Virus record (IMG/VR): IMGVR_UViG_3300022178_004108
Span: 1 to 29,207 of that record
Reading direction: 5' to 3' (one strand)
DNA from: a virus
Taxonomy: Duplodnaviria; Caudoviricetes
Length of the DNA stretch: 29,207 nucleotides
This document shows, piece after piece, positions 489-28,542 of this stretch. The position numbers and the translations under genes are program-made. A model generated the notes under the pieces. The model searched no databases. It saw only the letters and a list, made by a program, of their open reading frames with translations, and was not told where the DNA came from. Position 1 is the first letter of the stretch; each line of letters opens with the position of its first letter.

Positions 489-633
489 CTTTAACTTTTG
501 ACCACTTAGCAATAGTATAGCCTATAGTAACTATTAATAGTATTATTTTTAACCAATCTTCTATTTGAGTAAATGTTGTTACACCTAGTGTACTCCCGTT
601 CATTACATATAACCTAATATCTGGTAAGCTCAT
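472..633 (-). CDS. Putative holin / small membrane protein, 53 aa (MSLPDIRLYVMNGSTLGVTTFTQIEDWLKIILLIVTIGYTIAKWSKVKDEENK)
   Basis: Translated by hand. ATG overlaps the stop of the 2370-aa gene (TAATG at 635-631). It has a hydrophobic segment (WLKIILLIVTIGYTIA) and a charged C-terminal tail, and lies directly upstream of, and overlapping, the endolysin. Confidence 0.7.
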   Translation of the reverse strand: MSLPDIRLYVMNGSTLGVTTFTQIEDWLKIILLIVTIGYTIAKWSKVKDEENK

Positions 634-3600
634 TATTTTTTATTTTTCATTTTTATAAAATCTTCTTTTGTTAGCCTACTTGGTTTATATTTTATTGTAC
701 TTCCAAAAGGGCTTTTCTTTTTGCTTTTGCTGCGTTCGCTGCTTTTACTGCTTTCTACAAGACCTAAATCCCACTGACTATAACCTAATAACAAAGCTAT
801 TGATTGCCAGTATTTAGTGTCGTTGTCAACAGCAACTCTTAAGTTATCAGCCTTTCTTATTGCTCTGTCTAAAGGAACATTAGTTAAAGCAGATACAATT
901 TGGCCACCTGCATAAAAGGCTGGATTGTCTAATCCAAATCCAACCATTTTTTCACGTGTGGTTTTATAGCTAAATGCTCTACCAGCACCCATTAGTTTAC
1001 GCATTTTAGAATCAATAGGAGGAGATATACTTAAAGATCTTTGAGCTGCTACCGTGAAGTCTGGCCTATCTTTTCCTGCTTGAGTTTTAATTTCTATAAT
1101 TATATTTTTAAGAGTAGAAGCAATAGCTCCATAAACCCCAACACCTCTTAATATAGAATCTAGCATAGAGTTAGCTACTCTAGTTTGCTTATTATCTAAA
1201 GCCTCTTCGTCATCGTCAAAAAGACTTGCAAATAAAGCGGCTTGTAAACTTGAAAATATAATATTTTGAACTGCCATATAGTAGGCAATCTTTGTTATAT
1301 TAGTTTTAGCATCACCTCTTCTATTCTTAAGGTCTAAGAAAGCTTTTTTAGTTAAACGCATATATTGCATAGGAGTATTCGCAAAAGCTAATATAATACG
1401 ACCTAACGGACTTGCTTGTTGTTGTGATACTCTATCAGGTCTTGAAGACTGTTGAGTTTCCTCTGCAATCTCTTGGAAATCTAAAAACGCTTGCTCTTCG
1501 GCAGCCTTAGCGTCCATTCCTTCAGAAATATATTTGTTTATTCTGTTTCTAACAAAGCTTGCGCCACCAACAGCAATTGCAAAACTATCAGCTATCTGTG
1601 TAGGCAAGAACCCCATTTTAAGTATGGAAGACAATACAGCTTTTGTTTTATTTGTAGCAGTCTCTGCAGCGTTGGCAATGTCATCAGCATTTACATCATT
1701 CTTTAATCCTGATCGTCTTTGCTTTAAGAAATCAGAGTTAAACAACATTGCGAAGTCACTCCAGAATTGTTTTTGATTTGCAAAAGCTTTTGCTGAGGCC
1801 ATTGGATTATTATCTCCCCAGTTTATAAAGTTAACAATAGACAATGTTTGCAACAATGCTGATCTAGTATTAAAGAACATTATTGTACCAACCGAATCGT
1901 TAACCCAATTCATAAACCTATTTGTTAACTTATTAGCGCCTGAAGGTCTGTTTCTACCAGTCTTCATTCGGTATAACATATCCTCCATTGCCTCTACGTA
2001 GTTATCTCCAAACGCTGCTCTGAGTTTATTAAAGTTTTCTTTAGTAAATATTGCATCAGCATTATTTTGCCATGCTTCTAAAAACCCCGCTCTTTTAACT
2101 GTATTAATCATATTAATAGCGTCGGTAGTAATTGTACCTGCTAGCCAATCATTTTGTGGTTCCGGATATCCTTCTAATACAGAATCCATTTGATCTGCAA
2201 AGTCTAAAAGATCTTGGTTTGCTTGTACTATAGCAATTAATTCTTTTTTATCTGTTTCAGATAAGCCATTAATATCATAACCGTTTTTTGCCCATAAGTA
2301 AACTCTTACGGCAACTTCGTTTGTAAATCCTGTCTCATTAATTTTTTTCAATCCAGAAGGAACGTTTTTAATGTCCTTCTTAAGCTGATTAACAATCCCT
2401 GTTACATTTTGTTTATAGCTTTCAAATTCACGCATAGCTTTAGCAAACGGATCAAACAGAGCTTCTTTAAACCAAGCTTGCTGAGCTTCACCAGTTTTAC
2501 CTTTTCCTGTAAGTTTATATAATAACCCCGCAAAATCATCTGCCGATGGCGGAATAAAGAATTTATATTTACCTTTGTCTTGGCCTCTTACTTTACCTTT
2601 AGCTTCTGAAAAAGTTTTAAAAGACTCAATGCCTGTAACATCTTCTATTATATTATTGAACTCTTTGCTTAAGTTTTTAGAAAATTGAACTTTAGCTTGG
2701 TGTACTTTTGATTTAACATCTGCTTCCTCTAATACTTCTTGTACTGCTTTAACATTTTTATACGCATCATCAGCAAAGTAAAAATCATTATAGCCTTCAG
2801 CTACTTTACCTACAACCCATTGAGCTTTAGCTAAAGCTGTCCCATCACCTAAACCAAATATATTTTCTAATTTAATGTCTAAGCCAATACCTTTTAAAAA
2901 CTCGTGTATAGCATATTTTGAATTCGCTGGTCGAGCAGTTAAAATGTATACGTTGTCATTACCAAATTTTTTATTACGAGCAATAGCCTTTTCAAACATG
3001 GGCCCTTTAGCACCCTCCATAACCTTGCTAAACTCACTAAAATCAAACTCAGCGCCCTGAGCCGCTAGCGTGTCGCTATTTAAAGCAAATTCAGTCGCAT
3101 CTATTTTACCTTTAGTACCATCGGGCATTGTATATAATACATTGCTTTTAGTCGTTGCAAGTGTGTCATCAAAATCCCAGACACTAATGCCTTTAACGGG
3201 TGCATCAGGTCTATTAACCATAGCCTTAGCTTTATTCAATGTTTTACTAAATTGAATAAGCCTATGCTCTCGCATTTCTTGATCCACGGCTTTTTGTTGT
3301 TCTGTATTTAGCTTTAGATAATCATTTTTAAATAATCTATTGCTAACAACATTAACCATGCCAAATGGGTCGGCTTTTGTTTTTGATGCTTGTAATATAG
3401 CCGATATTGAGTTAGTGTCAATTATTGACTTTGTTTTACTTTCAGCTAATTTTTTACTAGACTCTGTTGAGATTTGAGTAAACATTCTTAGCGGAAAAGA
3501 ATGCTTTCCATTCTTTTTTAATACACTTTTATATAGCCAAGATCTTGTGTATAAATCTACCTCAAGCTTAGGTACTGCTAAATTGTTTTTATTTTCACCT

Positions 3601-6600
3601 ACATAAAAAGTACCTATATCAATAAAACCTATATAGTAGGCGTCTTTTTTATTATATATAGCTTCAACTAAGCTCTCATTCAAACCTTTTATTTCAGTAA
3701 CGGTTTCTTTGTACAAACTGTTTGTTAAACCTAATCTATCAATTTGTTCTGACGTTAGTTCTATAGCGCCATTTTTATCCAAATATTTTTCACCTGGATA
3801 AAACTCAGCCATCATTTTTTCAACTTTAGAAACAAAGTTGTTTAAATTTTTGCTTTTCTTTAATTGGTCAAATATAATTTTTTCACTTACAGAGCCTGTA
3901 TATCTGGTAGTTTCATAATTATTAGGGTCAGTATAATTGTATACATTTACACTGGTAATTCTATCAGACCTATTACTTTTTATTTCAAATATTATTGTTT
4001 CTCCCTTGCTTTTTATTATAATATCAGGAGCTGAACTCCCGGATTTACCTGAAGGTCTTTTAGATACCATCTTTACGCCTGGCACTTTTTTAAATGCGTC
4101 CCAAGCTAACTGCTCAGCAACCAATCCTTTTTCAAATGCTTTTGTTTCTCTTAATCTTTGTAAAGAGTCTAAATAAGGGCCAATTATGGTTGATTCTAGT
4201 TTTTCAAATAACTCAGGGCCAAGCTTATATTCAATGTCATTTATTGCTTGCTTTCTATCTTTTACAAGAGGTCTTAATGTTTGCGAAATTACCTGGGCAA
4301 CAAGCTGAGCCATTGTGATATTGCTATCGCTTTCAATGCCTAATCTATTAGCAATTTCTGATCTTTCAATTTTAGTCAAGCTAAACTGAATAATATCAAA
4401 GCTTTTTTGTTCGCCTTTATATCTATCAATTTGAGATTCTAAATTATTAAGCCCCGCTTCTATGGTTATATTGTTAACAACGTCAGTAGACTCTGTCGGC
4501 GCTAATGACTGAATACTTTGTAAATTGGATAAATTTTCAGGGGTTGCATAGTCTGCAACAACTTGTTTAGCCAGTGGTTCAAGTATTTCTCTAAATAATT
4601 GCTTTTGTCTTTCTAATATAGTTGTTTTCTTACCCTCAACAAAATATGTTAAAAAAGCTTTTTTATCAATCTTTTTAATTCTAAAGATTGGGTTGCCTTC
4701 TGCTGTTAATTCTCTACCTATTTTTTCAATTGGGAATAGCTTGCTATAGCTCTTCTTAATGCTTTTAATCGGCAAAGCTTTAGTTATTATATCAAAAGTT
4801 TTTGGATCATTTAGGAAGTCTATATAAGCCCCAGGGATAACGGTTTCGCCGTTTCTTTCACCTATAGCTCCAAGTTTTTTAGATAACTTTTTAAATAACT
4901 GCTTATTTACATAGTCTTCAAGCCATGTAACTAAATAAGTATCTCTACCTTTTTTAACCGAAATTGTTTCTGATAAAGTTCCCTTCTGTACTCTAGTGCG
5001 TATTTCTTTATTAAGATCTTTTTCAATATCAGCAATTAAAGCGTCGTCTACAATATCAAGCTCATCAAATGTTGCTTGACCTCTTTCCGCGGAAGGTTCT
5101 TTAGGCTTTGTGGTTGTGGTGGTTTCTTCTATAATGTCTTTAGCAGTATCAATATCTTTTTTAATACCTCCTTCTTCTATAGATTCTATACCTAAACGTT
5201 TAGCCAAATCATTTGCTCTTAAGTATGCTCTACTTACTGCAAATTTTTCAAGATCTTGTTTTGTTGCATCATATTCATTAAGGATCATTGTTTCGATATC
5301 AGCTCGCATAGATTCTTTGAACTGTTCTCTTGTAACACCCCTTTTAGCGTCGTCTGCTATTTTATCATACAATGCTTTTGTACGATTTGTAACAATCTTT
5401 TCAACCAAAGGTTTTACGCCTTCAATAACTTCTCTTTCTAATCTTACTTGCTTTGCGCCCTTAATAGGTTCTTTACCAAATTTAGCGGCTATCGCAGCGT
5501 TTTCTTTTGCAAGATTTTTAATTTCTGTTATATTATCTGACAATGCAACTTTTGCATCTTCTGATAATGTTTTAGAAGCTTGTAGCTCATCTTGCAATCC
5601 AGCATCACTTAAATCAACATCTTTAAGAGCTCCCGCTGCTTTTGCTGTTAATTTACCTTGCTCTGCACTTTGGTCAAATTCCTTAATAAAATTATATACA
5701 TCTTTACCAGATTCAAAACCTACATTAGTATATCCTACAGGCTTAAAAATACTTACAACCGCATCACCTATTTTTTCAAATGTAGTTTTATCGTAATTAA
5801 TTTGTTTTTTACGTAGCGCATCAGAAAATACATTAACATATTCTGTATTGTATTCTTTCCCAGTATATCCTCTTTTTTTCATTTCAGCGTCAACAAATCT
5901 TCTTTGTGACGAAGTCATAGCTTTTCTAAATTGACGAACCATTTTGCCTTGCTGCTCAGCATTTCCAATAAGCTTGTTAAATACAGGGTGTAAAACTTCA
6001 TGCATCCCGGCGTTAATTGAACCTGTCTTTCTAGCTATATCTTTATCTATAACTATTTTGTTGCCAATAGCAAAAGCAGAAACCTCAGATCCCTTACTTT
6101 TGTTATCAAAGTAAGCTTTCTTATTCTGTTCACTTACTTTATCACTATTCATTAAAGCCTCAACTTCCGCTGTTGTCATAACATCTAAGTCTAAGCCTTT
6201 TTCTTTAGCAATATCTTCGGCAGTTTTTATATTTTGCTCGAGGTTCATATCAATAAGTTGCTGACGCACCCCATCATATTCAGACTTAAAACCTTGATAA
6301 GCTAAATCATACCCTGCTTTATCAATTTTCCCTGCTCTAAGCTTTTTATCTAACTCTATAACTTGAGAAGCAGCTACATCAGCTAAATCTGTTAAATTTT
6401 CTATTTCTTTTAATTGTCCTTCTGAAAGGTTATTGTATATATCTTTACCTTTTCTTACAGAGTCAGCTATTTCGGATATTTTTGTATCTACTAGTTTTTG
6501 TATACCAGCTTTTTCTGTTTTATCAGTCGCTTTATTTAATTTTACCCTTAGCTTGCTTAAATCTTCTAAATTTTTGTCAATTAAATCGCCGTCTACAGTG

Positions 6601-7745
6601 GTTCTTATTGTATTCATAGCTCTATAGCTCGTTCCAACACCAGCCATTCCACTTCCACCTATTAAGCCTTGCAGTCCAGCTTCTAGTCCTTCTTCGCTAA
6701 ATATAGCGTCAAATGTAGCTTGTACAAATTTAGCATCCTCTTCTGTACCTGCAGTTCTACCAAATTCTTCATTTATTTTATCTGTAGCATTCTGCAGTAT
6801 TTCTGTAGCAAATTCAGTCCCCCCTGATGCTAATATATTAGCAACATTTCTAGCTTTTTTATTATATATAAGTTTAGCGCTAACGTTTTTAATTATGCTT
6901 TTACCGGCAGTAGCCTTTAGAACTTGCCCAAACCCAAACCTTTCTAATCCAACACTAACAGCACCTAATCCAACAGGAGCTAAATTGTCTGCTTCGCCTG
7001 ATCTAATAAGTTCATCTAAAGACACACCTAAATTTTTAGCTTTTTGCTCGTTATATGTAATATAGTTTTCAGCAGCTACTTCAGAAAAAACACCTGCACC
7101 AAGACCTGTGCCTAAAAAATATATACCGCTAGAAAAAGCGTTTACTAAAGCTTCAACACTTCCAGCTATAAGCCCGCCTACGTCTCCTTCTTTAGCGCTA
7201 GCTACAAGCCCTTTAGTAGCAAAATTACTTTCGTCTTGTTCTACTTTGTATTTTTCTATAGCTTCTATAGTCGCTTCCGAGCCTAAGCCTTCTGACATAA
7301 AGCCGGGGTTATTTTTTGCATATTGATCAACAGCCTCTTGACTTGATAATAAAGAGTAAAATGAATTTGTAGCTATATCTAAACCAGACCCAGCTCCTTC
7401 TTCACCTCCCCAAAATTCAACAACATCGTAAATACGCTCACCGGCTTTTTTAAATGTATTTTTAATAGATTGCCATGCCGATAAAGGCTCTTCCAATTTG
7501 GATCCCGTATCTTTTTGGCTTGACTCCACAGCTGGATCCGCACTTGCAGAGTCGTTTGTCTTTACTGGTTCTGCAACGAAAAACTGAGTACTAAAATCAC
7601 CGAAAGATTTTGTGTAGTCGCCAGAACTTTTTAATGCTCCATATAATTTTTCTTGCCCTTCTTTAGATCCAAATTGTGTTTGAAACTCTTCAAAAGACTT
7701 AGTATATTTACCTTGCTCAGAAAGCGCGTTGAATAATTTTTCCAT
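633..7745 (-). CDS. Giant multidomain (polyvalent) protein, probably internal virion/ejection protein: HExxH zincin, sigma-region-2-like segment, PD-(D/E)xK nuclease, HAD phosphatase, helical C-terminal domain
   Basis: 2370 aa. Motifs HEVLH (aa 582), PD...EIK (~aa 1240-1256), and DFDDT/ILTAR/FADD. Last of three genes after the tail genes, the position of T7 gp16 or P22 gp16-type ejection proteins. Confidence 0.75.
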   Translation of the reverse strand: MEKLFNALSEQGKYTKSFEEFQTQFGSKEGQEKLYGALKSSGDYTKSFGDFSTQFFVAEPVKTNDSASADPAVESSQKDTGSKLEEPLSAWQSIKNTFKKAGERIYDVVEFWGGEEGAGSGLDIATNSFYSLLSSQEAVDQYAKNNPGFMSEGLGSEATIEAIEKYKVEQDESNFATKGLVASAKEGDVGGLIAGSVEALVNAFSSGIYFLGTGLGAGVFSEVAAENYITYNEQKAKNLGVSLDELIRSGEADNLAPVGLGAVSVGLERFGFGQVLKATAGKSIIKNVSAKLIYNKKARNVANILASGGTEFATEILQNATDKINEEFGRTAGTEEDAKFVQATFDAIFSEEGLEAGLQGLIGGSGMAGVGTSYRAMNTIRTTVDGDLIDKNLEDLSKLRVKLNKATDKTEKAGIQKLVDTKISEIADSVRKGKDIYNNLSEGQLKEIENLTDLADVAASQVIELDKKLRAGKIDKAGYDLAYQGFKSEYDGVRQQLIDMNLEQNIKTAEDIAKEKGLDLDVMTTAEVEALMNSDKVSEQNKKAYFDNKSKGSEVSAFAIGNKIVIDKDIARKTGSINAGMHEVLHPVFNKLIGNAEQQGKMVRQFRKAMTSSQRRFVDAEMKKRGYTGKEYNTEYVNVFSDALRKKQINYDKTTFEKIGDAVVSIFKPVGYTNVGFESGKDVYNFIKEFDQSAEQGKLTAKAAGALKDVDLSDAGLQDELQASKTLSEDAKVALSDNITEIKNLAKENAAIAAKFGKEPIKGAKQVRLEREVIEGVKPLVEKIVTNRTKALYDKIADDAKRGVTREQFKESMRADIETMILNEYDATKQDLEKFAVSRAYLRANDLAKRLGIESIEEGGIKKDIDTAKDIIEETTTTTKPKEPSAERGQATFDELDIVDDALIADIEKDLNKEIRTRVQKGTLSETISVKKGRDTYLVTWLEDYVNKQLFKKLSKKLGAIGERNGETVIPGAYIDFLNDPKTFDIITKALPIKSIKKSYSKLFPIEKIGRELTAEGNPIFRIKKIDKKAFLTYFVEGKKTTILERQKQLFREILEPLAKQVVADYATPENLSNLQSIQSLAPTESTDVVNNITIEAGLNNLESQIDRYKGEQKSFDIIQFSLTKIERSEIANRLGIESDSNITMAQLVAQVISQTLRPLVKDRKQAINDIEYKLGPELFEKLESTIIGPYLDSLQRLRETKAFEKGLVAEQLAWDAFKKVPGVKMVSKRPSGKSGSSAPDIIIKSKGETIIFEIKSNRSDRITSVNVYNYTDPNNYETTRYTGSVSEKIIFDQLKKSKNLNNFVSKVEKMMAEFYPGEKYLDKNGAIELTSEQIDRLGLTNSLYKETVTEIKGLNESLVEAIYNKKDAYYIGFIDIGTFYVGENKNNLAVPKLEVDLYTRSWLYKSVLKKNGKHSFPLRMFTQISTESSKKLAESKTKSIIDTNSISAILQASKTKADPFGMVNVVSNRLFKNDYLKLNTEQQKAVDQEMREHRLIQFSKTLNKAKAMVNRPDAPVKGISVWDFDDTLATTKSNVLYTMPDGTKGKIDATEFALNSDTLAAQGAEFDFSEFSKVMEGAKGPMFEKAIARNKKFGNDNVYILTARPANSKYAIHEFLKGIGLDIKLENIFGLGDGTALAKAQWVVGKVAEGYNDFYFADDAYKNVKAVQEVLEEADVKSKVHQAKVQFSKNLSKEFNNIIEDVTGIESFKTFSEAKGKVRGQDKGKYKFFIPPSADDFAGLLYKLTGKGKTGEAQQAWFKEALFDPFAKAMREFESYKQNVTGIVNQLKKDIKNVPSGLKKINETGFTNEVAVRVYLWAKNGYDINGLSETDKKELIAIVQANQDLLDFADQMDSVLEGYPEPQNDWLAGTITTDAINMINTVKRAGFLEAWQNNADAIFTKENFNKLRAAFGDNYVEAMEDMLYRMKTGRNRPSGANKLTNRFMNWVNDSVGTIMFFNTRSALLQTLSIVNFINWGDNNPMASAKAFANQKQFWSDFAMLFNSDFLKQRRSGLKNDVNADDIANAAETATNKTKAVLSSILKMGFLPTQIADSFAIAVGGASFVRNRINKYISEGMDAKAAEEQAFLDFQEIAEETQQSSRPDRVSQQQASPLGRIILAFANTPMQYMRLTKKAFLDLKNRRGDAKTNITKIAYYMAVQNIIFSSLQAALFASLFDDDEEALDNKQTRVANSMLDSILRGVGVYGAIASTLKNIIIEIKTQAGKDRPDFTVAAQRSLSISPPIDSKMRKLMGAGRAFSYKTTREKMVGFGLDNPAFYAGGQIVSALTNVPLDRAIRKADNLRVAVDNDTKYWQSIALLLGYSQWDLGLVESSKSSERSKSKKKSPFGSTIKYKPSRLTKEDFIKMKNKK

Positions 7746-12269: not shown

Positions 12270-13125
12270 TTAAGGCAGTGGACAATCAGTTAAAGTATTA
12301 TATTGAGTTATAGATTCAACTACTCCGTTGCTATTTACAATTACTATTTCGTAAGAGTCTGGGGCAGATACGCCATTATCTCGTATAAAAACGTCATTAT
12401 CTAAAGCATTTGCCGCTGGTGGTCTTACTAATAAGTGAGCTCCAGAGCTATTAAGAGGTAGCGAAAGGTCATCCCGATCATAAAGTTGCGTGCCTACACT
12501 AAAGCCAATATTGCTATAAAAATAAAATCCTATTCCGCCTTGGGAGCCTCCCGTTGAAGTTTCATCAACAGTTAGCTGATATAAAGCCTCAAGCGCGCAC
12601 TTACTATCTAAAGCGTTGGAATAATTAGTTAAGGTCTCTACATGCGATCCCGTTTCTTCTGTTATAACTTGGAAATTAGTCCACATAGCCCAATAAGTAT
12701 CTGGCGTTGTTGGCGAGCATACTGTAAGAGAACTATATGGCACAACAGAATCAATAATACCATCCGATCCCCATATAACTATAAAATACGTATTAGGCAC
12801 TATAGTTGGGTTATTAGGATCTAAAGAGGGACTGTCTGGAGCAATTCCAATTGGCGGAGGTTTTATCCATAAATAAGCGCCTGCTTCAGTTATAGGCTGC
12901 AAAGTATCTTTATCATACATTTGAGTCCCTACAGATATTCCATCTGAAAACACATACTTAAATTGATTGCGATATATTGAGACGTTACTATAGAAGCCCT
13001 CTATAGCAGTGTAAAAATCATCTATAATACATTTAGCGTTTTGGGCCGTGGTTTCATTTATTATTGAAGATGTTTTTACCTTAGCATTCCACTGATACCA
13101 ACCTTCAAAATCAGTGTCTGGGGTT
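12270..13125 (-). repeat. Two diverged tandem ~140-aa domains at the C-terminus of the nozzle protein
   Basis: Copy 1: TPDT..W..AKC..Y..GISVGTQMYDKD..GAYL..PP..PNTYFIVI..GIIDSV..YSSLTVC. Copy 2: TPDT..W..SKC..Y..GFSVGTQLYDRD..GAHL..PP..PDSYEIVI..GVVESI..YNTLTDC. Confidence 0.85.
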
Positions 13126-16100
13126 GGAGAACCAGAGCTGCTACATGCTTCGTCAATGGTAACCGTTAATAAATAATCCTGGGGTGTTTCTTCTCCGCAA
13201 TCTAAACATGGTCCAATACCACTTCCATTTGGTTCGCATCCAATCAAAGTTCCTTTTATGTAATTAAAGTACTTACCTTCTTTCTTTTGAAATTCTTTAA
13301 TTTCGCCAGCTTCAAGATCTGTTCTAATAAAGCTAGTATACCAACCGTGCTTTTTAATTTGTGAACCTATAGGTATTATTTGATTAGCATTAACCTCAGC
13401 AATAGAATACCACTTTTGGTTTGGTCCTTCGTATTCAATAACCCTAGAAGCTGTGCCTGTATAATTTAAAGTGCTAAAACCTTTTACAACTTGAGGCATT
13501 TCGTTTATTAAAACATTAAACGAACTATCATATTGAACGCCATAAAAATTATTGTAAATAGAATTTGCTCCGTGCAACCATATAAGACCAGATTTAAAAG
13601 TATAATATAGATTGTTTAAAGTTATACCTGACTCTTGGATAAAACTTTTTCTGCTTGTCCAGCCGTCAATACTTTCTTTAAATGACAATGTTGTACTAGG
13701 TACTAAACTATCAGGAGCGTCTTCGCAATCTGGATCTAATTGGTAGTTAGCATCAAGGCTTAATCTTTTTTGCCAATAGTTAGACAAGTTGTTTAATGTA
13801 AGGTTGTATATATCCTTGTCATCATCATAACTACCTATAGCTGTAGTTGACGTTCTTAAGTTGTCAGCAAAAAAGCTTGACATACCTTTTTCAGCAATAT
13901 TAGTAATCCCATCTCTGGACAATCTTATTACCGCTCCTCTGTTTTTGTCTGTAAAGTAAACTCTAAATCCATAAGATGCAAAAGACTCGGGATTTTTAGA
14001 TATGCCAAATTCACCAGCATAGGGTATAGCTTGGCCTAAAACAGCATTATTACCGGTTAAATTAACATTGCCATCAGCATTATATAAAGCATCTTTATTA
14101 GCTAGTACACGTAAACATTTGTCTTCACATAAAGATATTAAATCAGTGTCTCTAGCGTGTAGCTTTTGTATTGTTCCGTATATAGGGTTAAGGTCTTTTG
14201 TAATTGGCTCTGCTTGTATAAACTGATTTAATCTATTTATACCCGATGTAGAGTTATATATTTGTGAAAATATAAACCCGCTGCCTCTTCGTTCAGCCGC
14301 ATATGGCTCATCTAATACAGTAGACACCTTAGGTCCCTTGTCTATAGTAACAGCGTTGTAGTCGTCTCTAATTCTATTTGACTCAACTCCATTACCATAA
14401 GAATAACAATTAAACCAATTTATTAGTTGGTTTGGAGTATTATAATTTGCAATCGGGATTGCGTTACTTGCTTCGTAAAACAAGTTTAAATCAACAGATT
14501 CTTTAGGTTCTGTTTCAAATATAGCTGGGTTTGAAGAAGATAAAAGCTTGTTGTTATCGCTGGTTATTGGCTCAACTACCTGTATACTAGGTAAAACATC
14601 TTGAAGATGAGCCCAGTCTCCTACATTTGGCATTAAAGGCTCGTTTAATTGTTCCTTAAGGGTAACCGTGCAGCCATACCTATAGTTCCACTGAGCGTTT
14701 CGGTCCCTACATACAAAATACGGGAGCTGAAAAAGCTTAAATATTTCTTTTCCAAATTCCGCTCCTCTAAACGTAGCTCTACCTATAGATTGGTCTACCG
14801 TGTATATATTAGAATAAGACCCGTCTTTAAATTTAAACCTAATTTTAGCCCCTGGAGCTATATAGCCATTAAGAGGTGTGCGACTTCCCCACATATCAGT
14901 CGACGATCCCACCATACCGTCTATAATGGTATTTAGTGGAGCGTTTAAATATTGAAAGCCAAAAACATTAGAGCCATTAGTAGGAGGCTGATAGCCGTCA
15001 TCAATATACGACTGCACGCCAGAACCAGCGCCTCCCCATCCGCCAACACCTTGTAAGTATCTTCCGCCGGCATTTCCATTACAAAATATCTGAAGAGCAT
15101 CTTCTTTTACGTGATTGCTTCCGCCGTCACCATAGTAATAGCCGTTTACACCGCCAATTTCATCATTTCTTGGATGCAAAGCTCTTGTAAAATCTATTTC
15201 GTCTTTAACAGCATATTGCGTTTTTAAAGCTTTAAAAGAAGATATAATATTTGTATCAAAACCAAAGTTTCTATTTATTTTTGCAAAGAATCTTCCTTCA
15301 AATTCTGGTAAATTTTTAGTTTCTTCTTCGTAAATCTCTATAACCACATCAGTTGTGCCGTCTGGTATTACTGGTGTATCAGCTCCTAAGGCTCGCTCAA
15401 GTCTTATAGTATAAGTTGTACCGTTTGTGCCGCTAATTTCAGCAGATTGCACCTCATATTTTTGAGTGCTCTGCCCTAAGTAATTTATTGCTATTTTAGC
15501 AGAGGAGTTTAATTTTTCTCTAAAACTAGAATTTGTATTATTGTCAGGGCCTGTAAATTTAATTTGTAAAAAACCGGGTTCTATTTCATTAAGTAGTGTA
15601 ACAGAAGAGGATGCTACAAAAGCATCAAATCTTGATATAAACTCTGGAGCCTCATTTGCTATAGATAATATTTTGTATCTATTTTCAGATGTTACAGCAA
15701 CGTCATTATCGTGCTGTTTCTTTAATATTAAATACGTTTCTTCGTCAACTTTATTTCTTTCAGAAGAAGGAAAAGATAGCCAAACATTACCATCTTCCGC
15801 TAAATAAAATCTGTCTAAAGCTAAGTTATAATATTCATTTGCTGTTTCCTTTATAAAAAACTTGTAATGGGTTGCTTCAGGGAAAGGCGGTTGTGATATA
15901 GGTGTTGCTTGTAGCTGAGTTACAGAAGAGGCTTCATTTGCATCTATCTGCAATCCAGCTTCTTCACTTGTAAATATAGGCGTTTCTCTTCCGTATTGAT
16001 CTTTAAATAACACCCCTAGCTGGTAGGTTCGTATAGATTTTAAAGACTTGTAAGGCATTCTTATATTTGGGTTTGGAGTCCCAACCTCAGTAGCGGGATC

Positions 16101-17768
16101 AATTTCAGAAGGCAGCGTTCCTGGGTGAACATTAGAAAATAATGTTAAGCCAAGCTTAACTGTATTATTTAAAGTATAGTTTTGTAAATAGTTTCCATAA
16201 ACTATTCTGTTGCCAATTATTTCTTGAGCTTTAGCTTTACGTGGAACGTTATCCCACGGCCTTAATATTTGGTTTGATTCAACTAATTTTGTAATTAGTT
16301 CAGTTTTAACATCATAATAAGTAGGTAATGATGTTAACGTATATGGTGTATAATCTCGCAGTTTTAAAGTATCTACAACATATACAGCTGTACTATTTGA
16401 TTCTTTATACAATATATCCAGCTCGTCGACTTCTTTTGAACCCCATTGCAAAGACTCTATCGCAAGTTTTCTAATATTATTAGTCATGCCTACATTATAT
16501 CCATTAGAAGAAACGTATTCAAATTCATTTCCAATAAAAGCAACTTCTGAGAATGGAGAAAAGCAAGAATATTCGCCGTCAATATATTTCCATCGGTATG
16601 CAAAACGGGGGAACACGTACTCAAACATAGGGTCTTTCTCTTGCAAGGTAGCCTCCCATTGTAAAGGAGTGCTAACTCCTTCAGCATCTATGTTTCTAAT
16701 TATATCCGTAGATATAGCTTGTATTTGGCCTGTTATTTCTGTGTTGTTTATTTGCGTTATTTTTATTTGCAACGCATAATTTTCAATTTGACCAAATTGA
16801 TTATTAAATTCTGCTTTAAGTGTTATTATATCATTATCTTCAGTGTTCCAAACAGTGACTAGTTGATCTGTAATAAAAGTAACCAAACCATTCCAACCAT
16901 ACGTAGAGTCATAATTTGGGTTATTAACGGGGTCATTAAAAGAGCTATCTAAATAATCGCCTCCAGATTCTATTTGTTCTAAATATTCACCATATGTAGG
17001 ATAAGAAGCAAATCGTTCTGGGAAAGATGTTAAATTTGGAGTGTAAGTGAAATTATGTAAATCAATATAATTAAATGTAGTTGTTGCTGGAGTATTACCA
17101 GTTCCAATAATATCATTGCCAAATTTAGAATCTGCCGCGGTAAAAGTAGGTGCGTTTAATGGAGATAATTTAATAACAGTAATATCTGTTTCAACAAAAT
17201 CGGGTTGGCCTGATAAGTTTGTATTGTAATTATTTTGATTGGCATCCCACTTAGGAATTTTAGTTTGAGTAACAAAATCAGTAGAACCTGTTTTAAACTT
17301 TTCAATGTTAATTTTCTTTGGCTCTGTTTGGTCGTCTGTCCAAAATAAAAACTTGTCAAGTATATTTATACCTGTAATTAAATAATCAGTTGAAAAATTT
17401 AAGATACCCGCGTTGTCCACTAATACTGGGCTAACCTCATTTTTTGTTTGGTCATATTCCGCAATCGCGCTAATGCCATCACTTGCTATGAACCAATATA
17501 TTCTTTCGTTTATATCATCTCTATAAGATCCAATACAAACAGGGTTTGTCATAGCGTCTATATAGCCACCTGTCCAAGTAGCACCTGTTCCAACCTTTGA
17601 ACGTAGTTGAATTGTGCCGGCAATATTCTGCATAGCTCCAACATCACTTGCGTCGGAGTTTGCTAAATCTAAGTTTAAAGCGTCTCTATATTCTCCATTC
17701 GGAACTAAACGTTCGTCAAGGTCTTTGTTCATTCTCCCCGCTTGGAAAACATGCACAAACTCTGCCAT
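12270..17768 (-). CDS. Tail stabilization/nozzle protein (functional analogue of P22 gp10 and the crAss Tstab/muzzle) with variable inserts
   Basis: 1832 aa. N-terminal GRMNKDLDERLVPNGEYRDALN, plus LFWTD, RFAYRWKY, GNRIVYGNY, YAGEFGISKNPESFASYG and YFTDKNRGAVIRLS, recalled as conserved in beta-propeller nozzle proteins of Bacteroidota podoviruses. It follows the two neck genes. Confidence 0.75.
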   Translation of the reverse strand: MAEFVHVFQAGRMNKDLDERLVPNGEYRDALNLDLANSDASDVGAMQNIAGTIQLRSKVGTGATWTGGYIDAMTNPVCIGSYRDDINERIYWFIASDGISAIAEYDQTKNEVSPVLVDNAGILNFSTDYLITGINILDKFLFWTDDQTEPKKINIEKFKTGSTDFVTQTKIPKWDANQNNYNTNLSGQPDFVETDITVIKLSPLNAPTFTAADSKFGNDIIGTGNTPATTTFNYIDLHNFTYTPNLTSFPERFASYPTYGEYLEQIESGGDYLDSSFNDPVNNPNYDSTYGWNGLVTFITDQLVTVWNTEDNDIITLKAEFNNQFGQIENYALQIKITQINNTEITGQIQAISTDIIRNIDAEGVSTPLQWEATLQEKDPMFEYVFPRFAYRWKYIDGEYSCFSPFSEVAFIGNEFEYVSSNGYNVGMTNNIRKLAIESLQWGSKEVDELDILYKESNSTAVYVVDTLKLRDYTPYTLTSLPTYYDVKTELITKLVESNQILRPWDNVPRKAKAQEIIGNRIVYGNYLQNYTLNNTVKLGLTLFSNVHPGTLPSEIDPATEVGTPNPNIRMPYKSLKSIRTYQLGVLFKDQYGRETPIFTSEEAGLQIDANEASSVTQLQATPISQPPFPEATHYKFFIKETANEYYNLALDRFYLAEDGNVWLSFPSSERNKVDEETYLILKKQHDNDVAVTSENRYKILSIANEAPEFISRFDAFVASSSVTLLNEIEPGFLQIKFTGPDNNTNSSFREKLNSSAKIAINYLGQSTQKYEVQSAEISGTNGTTYTIRLERALGADTPVIPDGTTDVVIEIYEEETKNLPEFEGRFFAKINRNFGFDTNIISSFKALKTQYAVKDEIDFTRALHPRNDEIGGVNGYYYGDGGSNHVKEDALQIFCNGNAGGRYLQGVGGWGGAGSGVQSYIDDGYQPPTNGSNVFGFQYLNAPLNTIIDGMVGSSTDMWGSRTPLNGYIAPGAKIRFKFKDGSYSNIYTVDQSIGRATFRGAEFGKEIFKLFQLPYFVCRDRNAQWNYRYGCTVTLKEQLNEPLMPNVGDWAHLQDVLPSIQVVEPITSDNNKLLSSSNPAIFETEPKESVDLNLFYEASNAIPIANYNTPNQLINWFNCYSYGNGVESNRIRDDYNAVTIDKGPKVSTVLDEPYAAERRGSGFIFSQIYNSTSGINRLNQFIQAEPITKDLNPIYGTIQKLHARDTDLISLCEDKCLRVLANKDALYNADGNVNLTGNNAVLGQAIPYAGEFGISKNPESFASYGFRVYFTDKNRGAVIRLSRDGITNIAEKGMSSFFADNLRTSTTAIGSYDDDKDIYNLTLNNLSNYWQKRLSLDANYQLDPDCEDAPDSLVPSTTLSFKESIDGWTSRKSFIQESGITLNNLYYTFKSGLIWLHGANSIYNNFYGVQYDSSFNVLINEMPQVVKGFSTLNYTGTASRVIEYEGPNQKWYSIAEVNANQIIPIGSQIKKHGWYTSFIRTDLEAGEIKEFQKKEGKYFNYIKGTLIGCEPNGSGIGPCLDCGEETPQDYLLTVTIDEACSSSGSPTPDTDFEGWYQWNAKVKTSSIINETTAQNAKCIIDDFYTAIEGFYSNVSIYRNQFKYVFSDGISVGTQMYDKDTLQPITEAGAYLWIKPPPIGIAPDSPSLDPNNPTIVPNTYFIVIWGSDGIIDSVVPYSSLTVCSPTTPDTYWAMWTNFQVITEETGSHVETLTNYSNALDSKCALEALYQLTVDETSTGGSQGGIGFYFYSNIGFSVGTQLYDRDDLSLPLNSSGAHLLVRPPAANALDNDVFIRDNGVSAPDSYEIVIVNSNGVVESITQYNTLTDCPLP

Positions 17769-27723: not shown

Positions 27724-27998
27724 TATTTAGATCTTTTTTCTGCAAACCCTTTGAAAGCTTTTTTCTCAACTTCTTCTTTAGGTTTATTATTCAACAAGTC
27801 CTCCTCTTCCTTTATTCTATTTAATATCTCAAAAGCATCAAATATTGCTAGCTTTTTTGTAGCAGCAGCATTTTTAAGTCTGTCAGCTGATATATCATCT
27901 CCTGAGTCAACGATCTTTTCGCCTGCTACCTTTATTAATTCCTCAACTGCTTTGTGTCCAGCTTGGATTATATTCCTCTTCGTTTCCTTGATATTCAT
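27723..27998 (-). CDS. Putative terminase small subunit (91 aa, start MNIKETKRN)
   Basis: Helical, charged protein whose stop overlaps the TerL ATG (TAATG). ATG at 27998 is preferred over the track start at 28085. Function inferred from position. Confidence 0.5.
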   Translation of the reverse strand: MNIKETKRNIIQAGHKAVEELIKVAGEKIVDSGDDISADRLKNAAATKKLAIFDAFEILNRIKEEEDLLNNKPKEEVEKKAFKGFAEKRSK

Positions 27999-28542
27999 AT
28001 TTAATTGTAATTGAATTGGTGGGTACCCGATATACTCTTTGTGAATTAATAACAAATTCGTATTCTGCCCCAGGCTTAAAGCCAATTAAGTCTCCATCTT
28101 CCACCGTGTGTAAGTCTGGATCTTTCGCATACAAAACGCCAACTCCTTCTTTTTCAAAATTAGTTGAAAACATTTTATTTTCTTTTATAGGCTTTACAAA
28201 ATTAAAACCTTTACAAGCCATCCATCCGCAACATCTTCTGTAAGCATACACTTGATCCTCACTTGCAAAATAAATATTATCTTTATAATATGACTTGCTA
28301 TTTTTCTCCTGACCCCTAATGTCTTTAAAACGTCTAAAAACATTATGGTGTACTATTATTTCGTCACCTACTTCAATCTCAGTTTCTATTTCTGAAGGAA
28401 CTGCTATAACCTTAGCTACTCTATTCGAATAATTGTGATTATGTAATTCTGTATTTAAAATAAGCTCTGAATCTTCTATTGATTTTTTATTATTATACCT
28501 ATCCCCCACGGGCTCTATAATAAAGTCAAATAAAGCTTTCAT
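27943..28542 (-). CDS. Co-chaperonin GroES-like protein with two tandem GroES-like domains
   Basis: Half 1: FIIEP..ILNT..AKVIAVP..IEVGDEIIV. Half 2: NFVKP..GVL..VEDGDLIGF..AEYEFVINSQRVYRV..SI. Both match the GroES pattern (V.V.P..G.V.AV..V.VGD.V.F....E..I.G..Y.....DI). Confidence 0.65.
   Translation of the reverse strand: MKALFDFIIEPVGDRYNNKKSIEDSELILNTELHNHNYSNRVAKVIAVPSEIETEIEVGDEIIVHHNVFRRFKDIRGQEKNSKSYYKDNIYFASEDQVYAYRRCCGWMACKGFNFVKPIKENKMFSTNFEKEGVGVLYAKDPDLHTVEDGDLIGFKPGAEYEFVINSQRVYRVPTNSITIKYEYQGNEEEYNPSWTQSS

Follow-up and report, generated by a model that had tools for sequence, protein, structure and literature searches.

The giant gene and its repeated motif

The tailed-virus record IMGVR_UViG_3300022178_004108 from IMG/VR (Duplodnaviria; Caudoviricetes) was analyzed over a stretch of 29,207 nucleotides, called the window here. 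Its giant gene encodes a protein of 2,370 residues in which a short peptide of the form [LIV]Q[FA]S[KL] recurs at the joints between domains. An initial annotation of the DNA placed five such motifs in this open reading frame, and all five are found there, with the glutamine at residues 722, 1120, 1452, 1498, and 1687 (the nucleotide ranges of that annotation are the four codons starting with the glutamine). The follow-up analysis favors a modular polyprotein, likely packaged and ejected, in which the joint peptide is probably recognized and cut by the zincin-like metallopeptidase (zincin) of the same chain. The features are collected in Table 1.

Table 1. Parts of the giant protein in the window (aa, amino acids)
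Feature	Residues	Window position	Strand	Remarks
Giant polyvalent protein		633..7745	minus	2,370 aa; final gene in the virion module
N-terminal region	1–~493	6267..7745	minus	No motif; always moves with the zincin
Zincin-like metallopeptidase domain	~494–716	5598..6266	minus	Strands, HExxH helix, later Glu helix
Motif 1, LQASKT	721–726	5568..5585	minus	
Conserved segment	727–1118	4392..5567	minus	First ~135 aa, sigma-factor domain-2 fold
Motif 2, IQFSLT	1119–1124	4374..4391	minus	Opens the variable zone
Variable cassette, PD-(D/E)xK nuclease fold		3396..4373	minus	E1211, D1241, E1254, K1256
Motif 3, LQASKT	1451–1456	3378..3395	minus	C-terminal edge of the nuclease fold
Small optional helical cassette		3258..3377	minus	46 aa motif to motif
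Motif 4, IQFSKT	1497–1502	3240..3257	minus	
Optional HAD-family phosphatase cassette		2691..3239	minus	DFDDT; 189 aa motif to motif
Motif 5, VQFSKN	1686–1691	2673..2690	minus	
Conserved C-terminal domain		633..2672	minus	~680 aa; no family match, no internal motif

Modules between the motifs

The metallopeptidase domain carries HExxH as HEVLH at residues 582–586 (H582, E583, and H586; nucleotides 5988–6002). The AlphaFold model has the zincin-like layout of the gluzincin type, with strands, the HExxH helix, and a glutamate, E635 (nucleotides 5841–5843), on a later helix. Of the 143 close homologs, 137 carry HExxH, the remaining six being N-terminally incomplete, and the catalytic glutamate of HExxH is invariant across the 31 rows of alignment A1. 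Fold and sequence searches gave no solved zincin; the fold searches used a 656-residue model, and their match lists were filled by the sigma-like domain. An Atlas search gave clusters without names, plus one with LPD23 on 18% of its members. The HExxH…E layout suggests that the zincin is a protease. A group of relatives (L006, L007, L012, P0066, P0086, and their kin) has an N-terminal region ~450 residues longer than that of the window protein, also without a motif.

Motif 1 had been set between the HExxH region and a sigma-like segment, and a sigma-factor domain-2 fold does begin just past it, at residues ~726–862 (window 5160–5570; 4x8k_A, Z 9.2, root-mean-square deviation 4.2, 115 residues aligned). 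Rows 1–24 of this search are nearly all sigma factors, Z values under ~13 being weak for helical bundles, and a second search gave weak support for the fold. For the remainder of the conserved segment the fold search assigned nothing, and no domain 4 was found. Motifs 4 and 5 bracket the HAD domain as proposed: the fold lies at residues ~1516–1682 (phrog_415, E = 7e-4; T4 Pnkp phosphatase, Z 7.1) and combines a DxDxT motif with a Rossmann-like fold. Motifs 2 and 3 bracket the nuclease as well. The PD-(D/E)xK fold lies between them at residues ~1205–1453 (HhaI 6uke_X, Z 10.5, root-mean-square deviation 3.9, 182 residues aligned; Hjc match, E = 0.03), but motif 3 overlaps its last aligned residues (alignments stop at residues 1453–1458). 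The functions proposed for the sigma-like, nuclease, and phosphatase modules are predictions at the level of the fold.

The small helical cassette is 46–60 residues long in 35 homolog segments. The HAD cassette is enlarged to ~328 residues, apparently by an internal insertion, in P0027, P0052, P0057, and L003:9005-9988 (segment family 14), and a HAD insertion is also seen in P0131, P0147, P0154, P0142, and P0144.

Several unrelated enzymatic domains are joined in this one chain, its domain architecture is variable, and its gene has a late-gene context beside virion genes; these are the marks of a polyvalent protein. The ART-PolyVal domain was found only in relatives, as PF18760 in P0103 (E = 5e-17) and in a cassette of L008 (E = 2e-6, under the curated cut-off), and the window's own protein matched neither ART-PolyVal nor any Pfam LPD family.

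The motifs were expected to fall on linkers. In AlphaFold models, motifs 2, 4, and 5 have a predicted local distance difference test score (pLDDT) below 50 and motif 1 a score of ~56, but motif 3 lies at a domain edge, and short beta bridges are modeled at motifs 1 and 3. These bridges and the place of motif 3 at the nuclease edge would suit a structural capping strand needed at each module end and recognized by no other domain. That explanation is most improbable, given that this peptide sits beside folds that are unrelated to one another and that it changes in concert across joints with the N-terminal half, as described below. Cofolding of the zincin (residues 494–715) with a 31-residue motif-4 peptide and zinc scored 0.25 against a mark of 0.32 and is neutral as evidence.

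Spread of the motif in homologs

Shuffling the window protein gave more than two motif matches in 0 of 20,000 shuffles, for a pattern that was picked post hoc. An independent check of conservation comes from an iterated profile, I-Q-F-S-K-T, which found 3.8 sites per protein in 149 distinct homologs versus 0.12 in 60 shuffled copies; the motif is therefore conserved, in a homolog set that under-samples very distant lineages. Profile sites are strictly placed relative to HExxH, with none in 87,679 residues upstream and 540 downstream. Motif 2 is the strictest site, scored in all 137 full close homologs, and motif 1 is the most relaxed, with F, L, A, or T after the glutamine. Exact duplicates were removed before counting, as was L020, in which the giant gene is broken just before the C-terminal domain (L020:9908-11977) by a stop or frameshift that may be an assembly error.

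Tandem motifs 5–24 residues apart occur in P0017 (residues 1406–1417), L002:9389-9421, and P0054 (residues 1183–1206) and are likely remnants of lost cassettes.

Joints for cassette exchange at the peptide level

Cutting the 143 close homologs at their sites yields 711 segments, which fall into 32 families and make up 59 architectures. The N-terminal half, segment 1, and the C-terminal domain are constant, and the variable zone lies between them. With the motif masked, 1,074 of 1,840 BLAST alignment ends among 35 of them lie no more than 10 residues from a site versus 5% at random, the breakpoint pairs of these proteins not being independent of each other; without masking, 54% of breakpoints are near sites. 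In 84 distant homologs, 831 of 4,487 breakpoints lie near sites versus 3.8% at random. Breakpoints of domain gain and loss thus coincide with the motif.

The motifs had also been offered as junctions for cassette exchange, which stands for joints at the peptide level and fails for recombination sites in the DNA. Clustered breakpoints and tandem remnants are both what would be expected if the motifs were DNA recombination sites, or scars of exchange, with no role in the protein. The codons largely refute this account, which is very improbable. Among 98 distinct DNA sites, serine is encoded by TCT in 53, AGT in 16, AGC in 16, TCA in 10, and TCC in 2; the glutamine, phenylalanine, and lysine codons are near gene-wide usage; and one orthologous joint has serine codons of both the TCN and the AGY type. 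The use of both serine codon families points to selection on the peptide rather than on a DNA site, which is unlikely on this sequence evidence. New sites also arise by point changes within otherwise identical linkers.

Two known kinds of cassette system were considered and set aside. A site-specific DNA system such as an integron or shufflon does not fit, as there is no conserved DNA site independent of coding and synonymous codons vary. A polymorphic toxin would carry a C-terminal toxin on a constant stalk; in these proteins the C-terminal domain is the conserved part and the variation is internal.

Rewriting of the motif with the N-terminal half

In several lineages the junction motif follows the N-terminal, zincin-bearing half of the protein. 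Distant homologs mostly have a K/R-F/Y-S-K motif, and three departures from it coincide with exchanged N-terminal halves. P0170 and P0165 have C-terminal domains that are ~100% identical and HAD domains that are 92% identical, with N-terminal halves at ~20–37%. At their HAD-to-C joint the motif alone differs, KVKFSKAS versus FRKASTRD, between identical flanks. Before its HAD domain, P0170 has a new RKASIR, derived from PKASVD and adjoining the old IKFSE, and its other two joints, KAASIR and RAASVR, resemble this new form.

The P0126 group provides a second case. It comprises five proteins of two sequence types, counted as one event, with a very divergent zincin (VWHE[SG]LHF). Compared with K-F-S relatives, segment 1 is 85%, the HAD domain 88%, and the C-terminal domain 94% identical, against at most 21% for the zincin. 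ASRE occurs three times in each of P0126-128 and twice each in P0160, which has ASKE at its first joint, and P0162. A shared LIVDP is followed by VASRE in 5 of 5 proteins of the group, and KFS follows in 24 of 25 others, the last having KAS. A search for further ASRE-type zincins returned the same five proteins only.

A third case comes from the L053 group, whose zincin nests in the window's clade (Shimodaira–Hasegawa-like approximate likelihood-ratio test [SH-aLRT] 99) and whose C-terminal domain groups with L035, L036, and L054 (SH-aLRT 100), in two quick trees with long branches. Its junctions are Q-F-S-[RK]. L036, with a HAD domain 75–80% identical to that of the L053 group, has VKSSVN, VASSIN, and VKSSIN, and L054 has RASI, KASL, KASI, and KASI.

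The joints of one protein are also more alike than joints compared between proteins, in tests with 21–24 representatives (J1-JH, p = 0.006, control 0.37; J1-JC, p = 0.023, control 0.38).

What reads the motif

The proposal that the sites are cut by the protein's own zincin gains indirect support where the motif is rewritten under a swapped N-terminal half, but several zincin swaps leave the motif unchanged. Among 22 zincin lineages (142 proteins with zincin and HAD domain), grouped into site classes defined after the fact, the pre-HAD site is Q-type in 6, K/R-F/Y-S-K-type in 8, and K-x-S-E/D in 3, with ASRE, SSIN, and ASxR in 1 each and 2 unscored.

A number of observations weigh against cutting by the zincin. 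The eight lineages with K/R-F/Y-S-K are only 25–40% identical in their zincins, several of them on cargo that is 91–99% identical; divergent zincins therefore share one motif, and a zincin swap often leaves it as it is. Inspection of the zincin alignment showed no clean rule by which active-site residues predict the motif class. In five proteins (P0130, P0138, P0141, P0157, and P0158) HExxH is replaced by EELSH and the motifs are retained; the zincin of these proteins could be an active variant or could be dead. No motif is evident in L035 and L049, and L033 has only a doubtful one. Most members of the largest distant clade no longer have the HAD-to-C site. The third joint-similarity comparison, JH-JC (p = 1e-4), cannot be used, as its control came out significant too (p = 0.001). 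The lineage patterns were picked after the data had been seen, several rest on single proteins, and cutting at the motifs would be a reading of sequence patterns. From the literature, the giant virion RNA polymerase (vRNAP) of coliphage N4 carries HExxH yet has been studied as a full-length recombinant protein (PMC13434306), and the metalloprotease activity of ArdC is dispensable for antirestriction (PMC7213743).

Finally, the zincin was never found moving apart from the N-terminal region. As the two always move together, the reader of the motif may be that region or a covarying host factor. One alternative is that the N-terminal half reads the motif without cutting it, the zincin acting as a peptide binder and the motif as a docking point for folding in packaging, for inactivation of modules, or for the pace of threading through the tail. 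Covariation with the N-terminal half fits this equally well, the EELSH proteins retain their motifs, and N4 vRNAP is described as a single chain like beads on a string (PMC13434306). Such docking is nevertheless unlikely: the catalytic glutamate that is invariant in alignment A1 is kept even in EELSH, and tandem motifs so close together are tolerated, which suits cut sites more than ordered docking.

Alternatively, a protease of the host, or a head protease encoded separately by the phage, may cut the chain in trans, with the N-terminal half changing with the host and the motif tracking the host enzyme. Prohead proteases do cut ejected head proteins elsewhere (PMC10052503), the N-terminal half and zincin are inseparable in the data, and many zincins share one motif. 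Against this, no motif site was found in the 14 other window open reading frames scanned, including scaffold, capsid, and portal (half of the genome lies outside the window), and the stretch upstream of the zincin has no sites. It would also be hard to fit the many private motifs of close phages to conserved host enzymes. Cutting in trans is accordingly judged quite unlikely, and cutting by the chain's own zincin is still the probable explanation.

ART cassettes and the giants of other phages

The ART cassette of P0103 matches 18 phage records, six of which were looked at closely. All six ART-bearing giants, which are unrelated, carry HExxH or HExxxH. The peptide after ART is DDIRYS in vB_PalP_Y7, Y11, and crassvirus ctcc615, DNIRHSS in cr271_1, DDIRFRE in BF1-TP2, and a looser DDTRYR in cr85_1. 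Three giants repeat a form of their own upstream of ART: SS[VI]TE occurs twice each in ctcc615 and cr271_1, and [IV]RFR occurs four times in BF1-TP2 versus 0.54 expected. All of these patterns were picked post hoc, and it may be that the peptide after ART moved along with the cassette. In L069-L074, IRYS-, IRFR-, or SSVTE-type peptides flank the ART-PolyVal cassette of crassviruses and of Pseudoalteromonas, Shewanella, and Bacteroides phages.

A de novo gapped-triplet motif search of the giants of four closer relatives, elemo, Manatee Spring phage, phi38:1, and phi13:2 (gp127 of the last covered to residue 1,818), gave nothing convincing; the search is insensitive, since it did not pick up the motif already known from the window protein. 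HExxH is lacking in the giants of phi38:1 and, up to residue 1,818, phi13:2. It is possible, at somewhat under an even chance, that tailed phages widely run a polyprotein program in the style of RNA viruses, in which an ejected giant has its own metalloprotease and a coevolving site code particular to its lineage, and cassettes move as far as crassviruses by gaining the local code at both ends.

Genome setting

The virion module in the window contains a GroES-like gene, terminase, portal, capsid, and tail-type genes, and then the giant-gene set, with the order 209-residue gene, 476-residue gene, giant gene, and amidase at its end. The terminase and capsid protein match those of Elemovirus, Callevirus phi38:1, and Baltivirus phi13:2 (Flavobacterium and Cellulophaga phages), in which the same three-gene set closes the module and the giant is annotated as structural. 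This synteny makes it likely that the window's giant is packaged in the virion and ejected, and together with the terminase and capsid matches it points to a flavobacterial host. Both assignments go by analogy, since the whole giant gave no match in tblastn against GenBank phages and its homologs match only weakly the N-terminal parts of the giants of these relatives (homolog P0155 versus elemo gp93, E = 9e-9).

The GroES-like gene (phrog_13932; 27943-28542, minus strand) lies just upstream of the terminase region, and cultured relatives have one too. A virion protein of 1,832 residues (12270-17768, minus strand) matches the crassvirus muzzle's C-terminal domain (PF25729, E = 9e-6, just under the cut-off) and has a C-terminal extension, apparently with an internal repeat. 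Eight sequencing runs hold at least half of the giant gene's words, all labeled freshwater metagenome, and four of these carry a flag as possible sources. Contigs of metatranscriptome run X12 cover most of the giant gene (2932-7563) at 90–99% identity and may come from library DNA. No joints were seen at the motif positions in contigs of four runs.

A proposed pathway and its significance

Most likely, the giant chain is packaged, and its N-terminal region would serve ejection. The zincin would cut each motif, beginning with the relaxed site beside it and proceeding to the stricter sites downstream, either in the capsid or after ejection. Thermolysin-like enzymes cut before a hydrophobic residue, and by analogy the cut here could fall at Q|F-S-K. 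Sigma-like, nuclease, phosphatase, or ART modules would be set free as early proteins of their own. Just one site per end would suffice for the release of a new cassette, so exchange would be kept at these points.

Such a pathway would explain how a very large virion cargo turns into separate early effectors and why cassettes are exchanged at fixed points, and it would supply a rule by which giant phage proteins can be parsed, those of crassviruses included. If the site code is real, the cut products of thousands of polyvalent proteins would be readable from sequence. The natural protease-swap pairs P0165/P0170, P0133/P0126, and L036/L053 make the question testable with short peptides.

Comparison with known systems

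Positive-strand RNA virus polyproteins are made as one chain with its own protease and repeated short sites at the domain joints. The likeness is one of working only, between unrelated systems; here the chain is virion cargo of a double-stranded DNA phage, the candidate protease is a metalloprotease, and the cassettes are exchangeable.

Among phages, packaged and ejected proteins are cut site-specifically during prohead maturation in SPN3US, where head proteins such as gp245 are cut by the prohead protease (PMC10052503). For the window protein such cutting is a proposal. SPN3US uses a separate protease on many head proteins, whereas in the present case only one protein has the motif, and that chain also contains the candidate protease. 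The vRNAP of N4 is also a giant ejected protein with an HExxH subdomain, the third of three ejection proteins (PMC13434306). It is a single chain with an RNA polymerase; the window protein has no polymerase and instead has a sigma-2-like module and a variable zone.

Further parallels are polyvalent proteins carried in virions with a metallopeptidase, namely, DdrB/DarA of P1 (PMC5512222) and gp47 of phi24B (bioRxiv 10.64898/2026.04.10.717836). For the P1 protein, processing has been reported to precede packaging (PMC5512222), and the peptidase of the packaged gp47 is proposed to act on peptidoglycan (10.64898/2026.04.10.717836). The available portions of these sources describe no repeated site, unlike that of the window protein. 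In the literature searched, to which most subscription papers and the supplementary alignments of Iyer et al. are external, no description of the junction motif was found.

Self-processing of polyvalent proteins was already proposed in 2017: Iyer et al. (PMC5512222) suggested that autoproteolysis by the metallopeptidase (MPTase) releases their domains, and they cite both processing of the P1 protein and packaging of unprocessed N4 vRNAP. The window protein resembles the phage-type polyvalent proteins of their account in being a giant multidomain chain encoded beside virion genes, with HExxH…E and with ART-PolyVal in its relatives. That account, in its accessible part, names no recognition site. 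New here are candidate junction sites, a motif tied both to the breakpoints of cassette exchange and to the zincin lineage.

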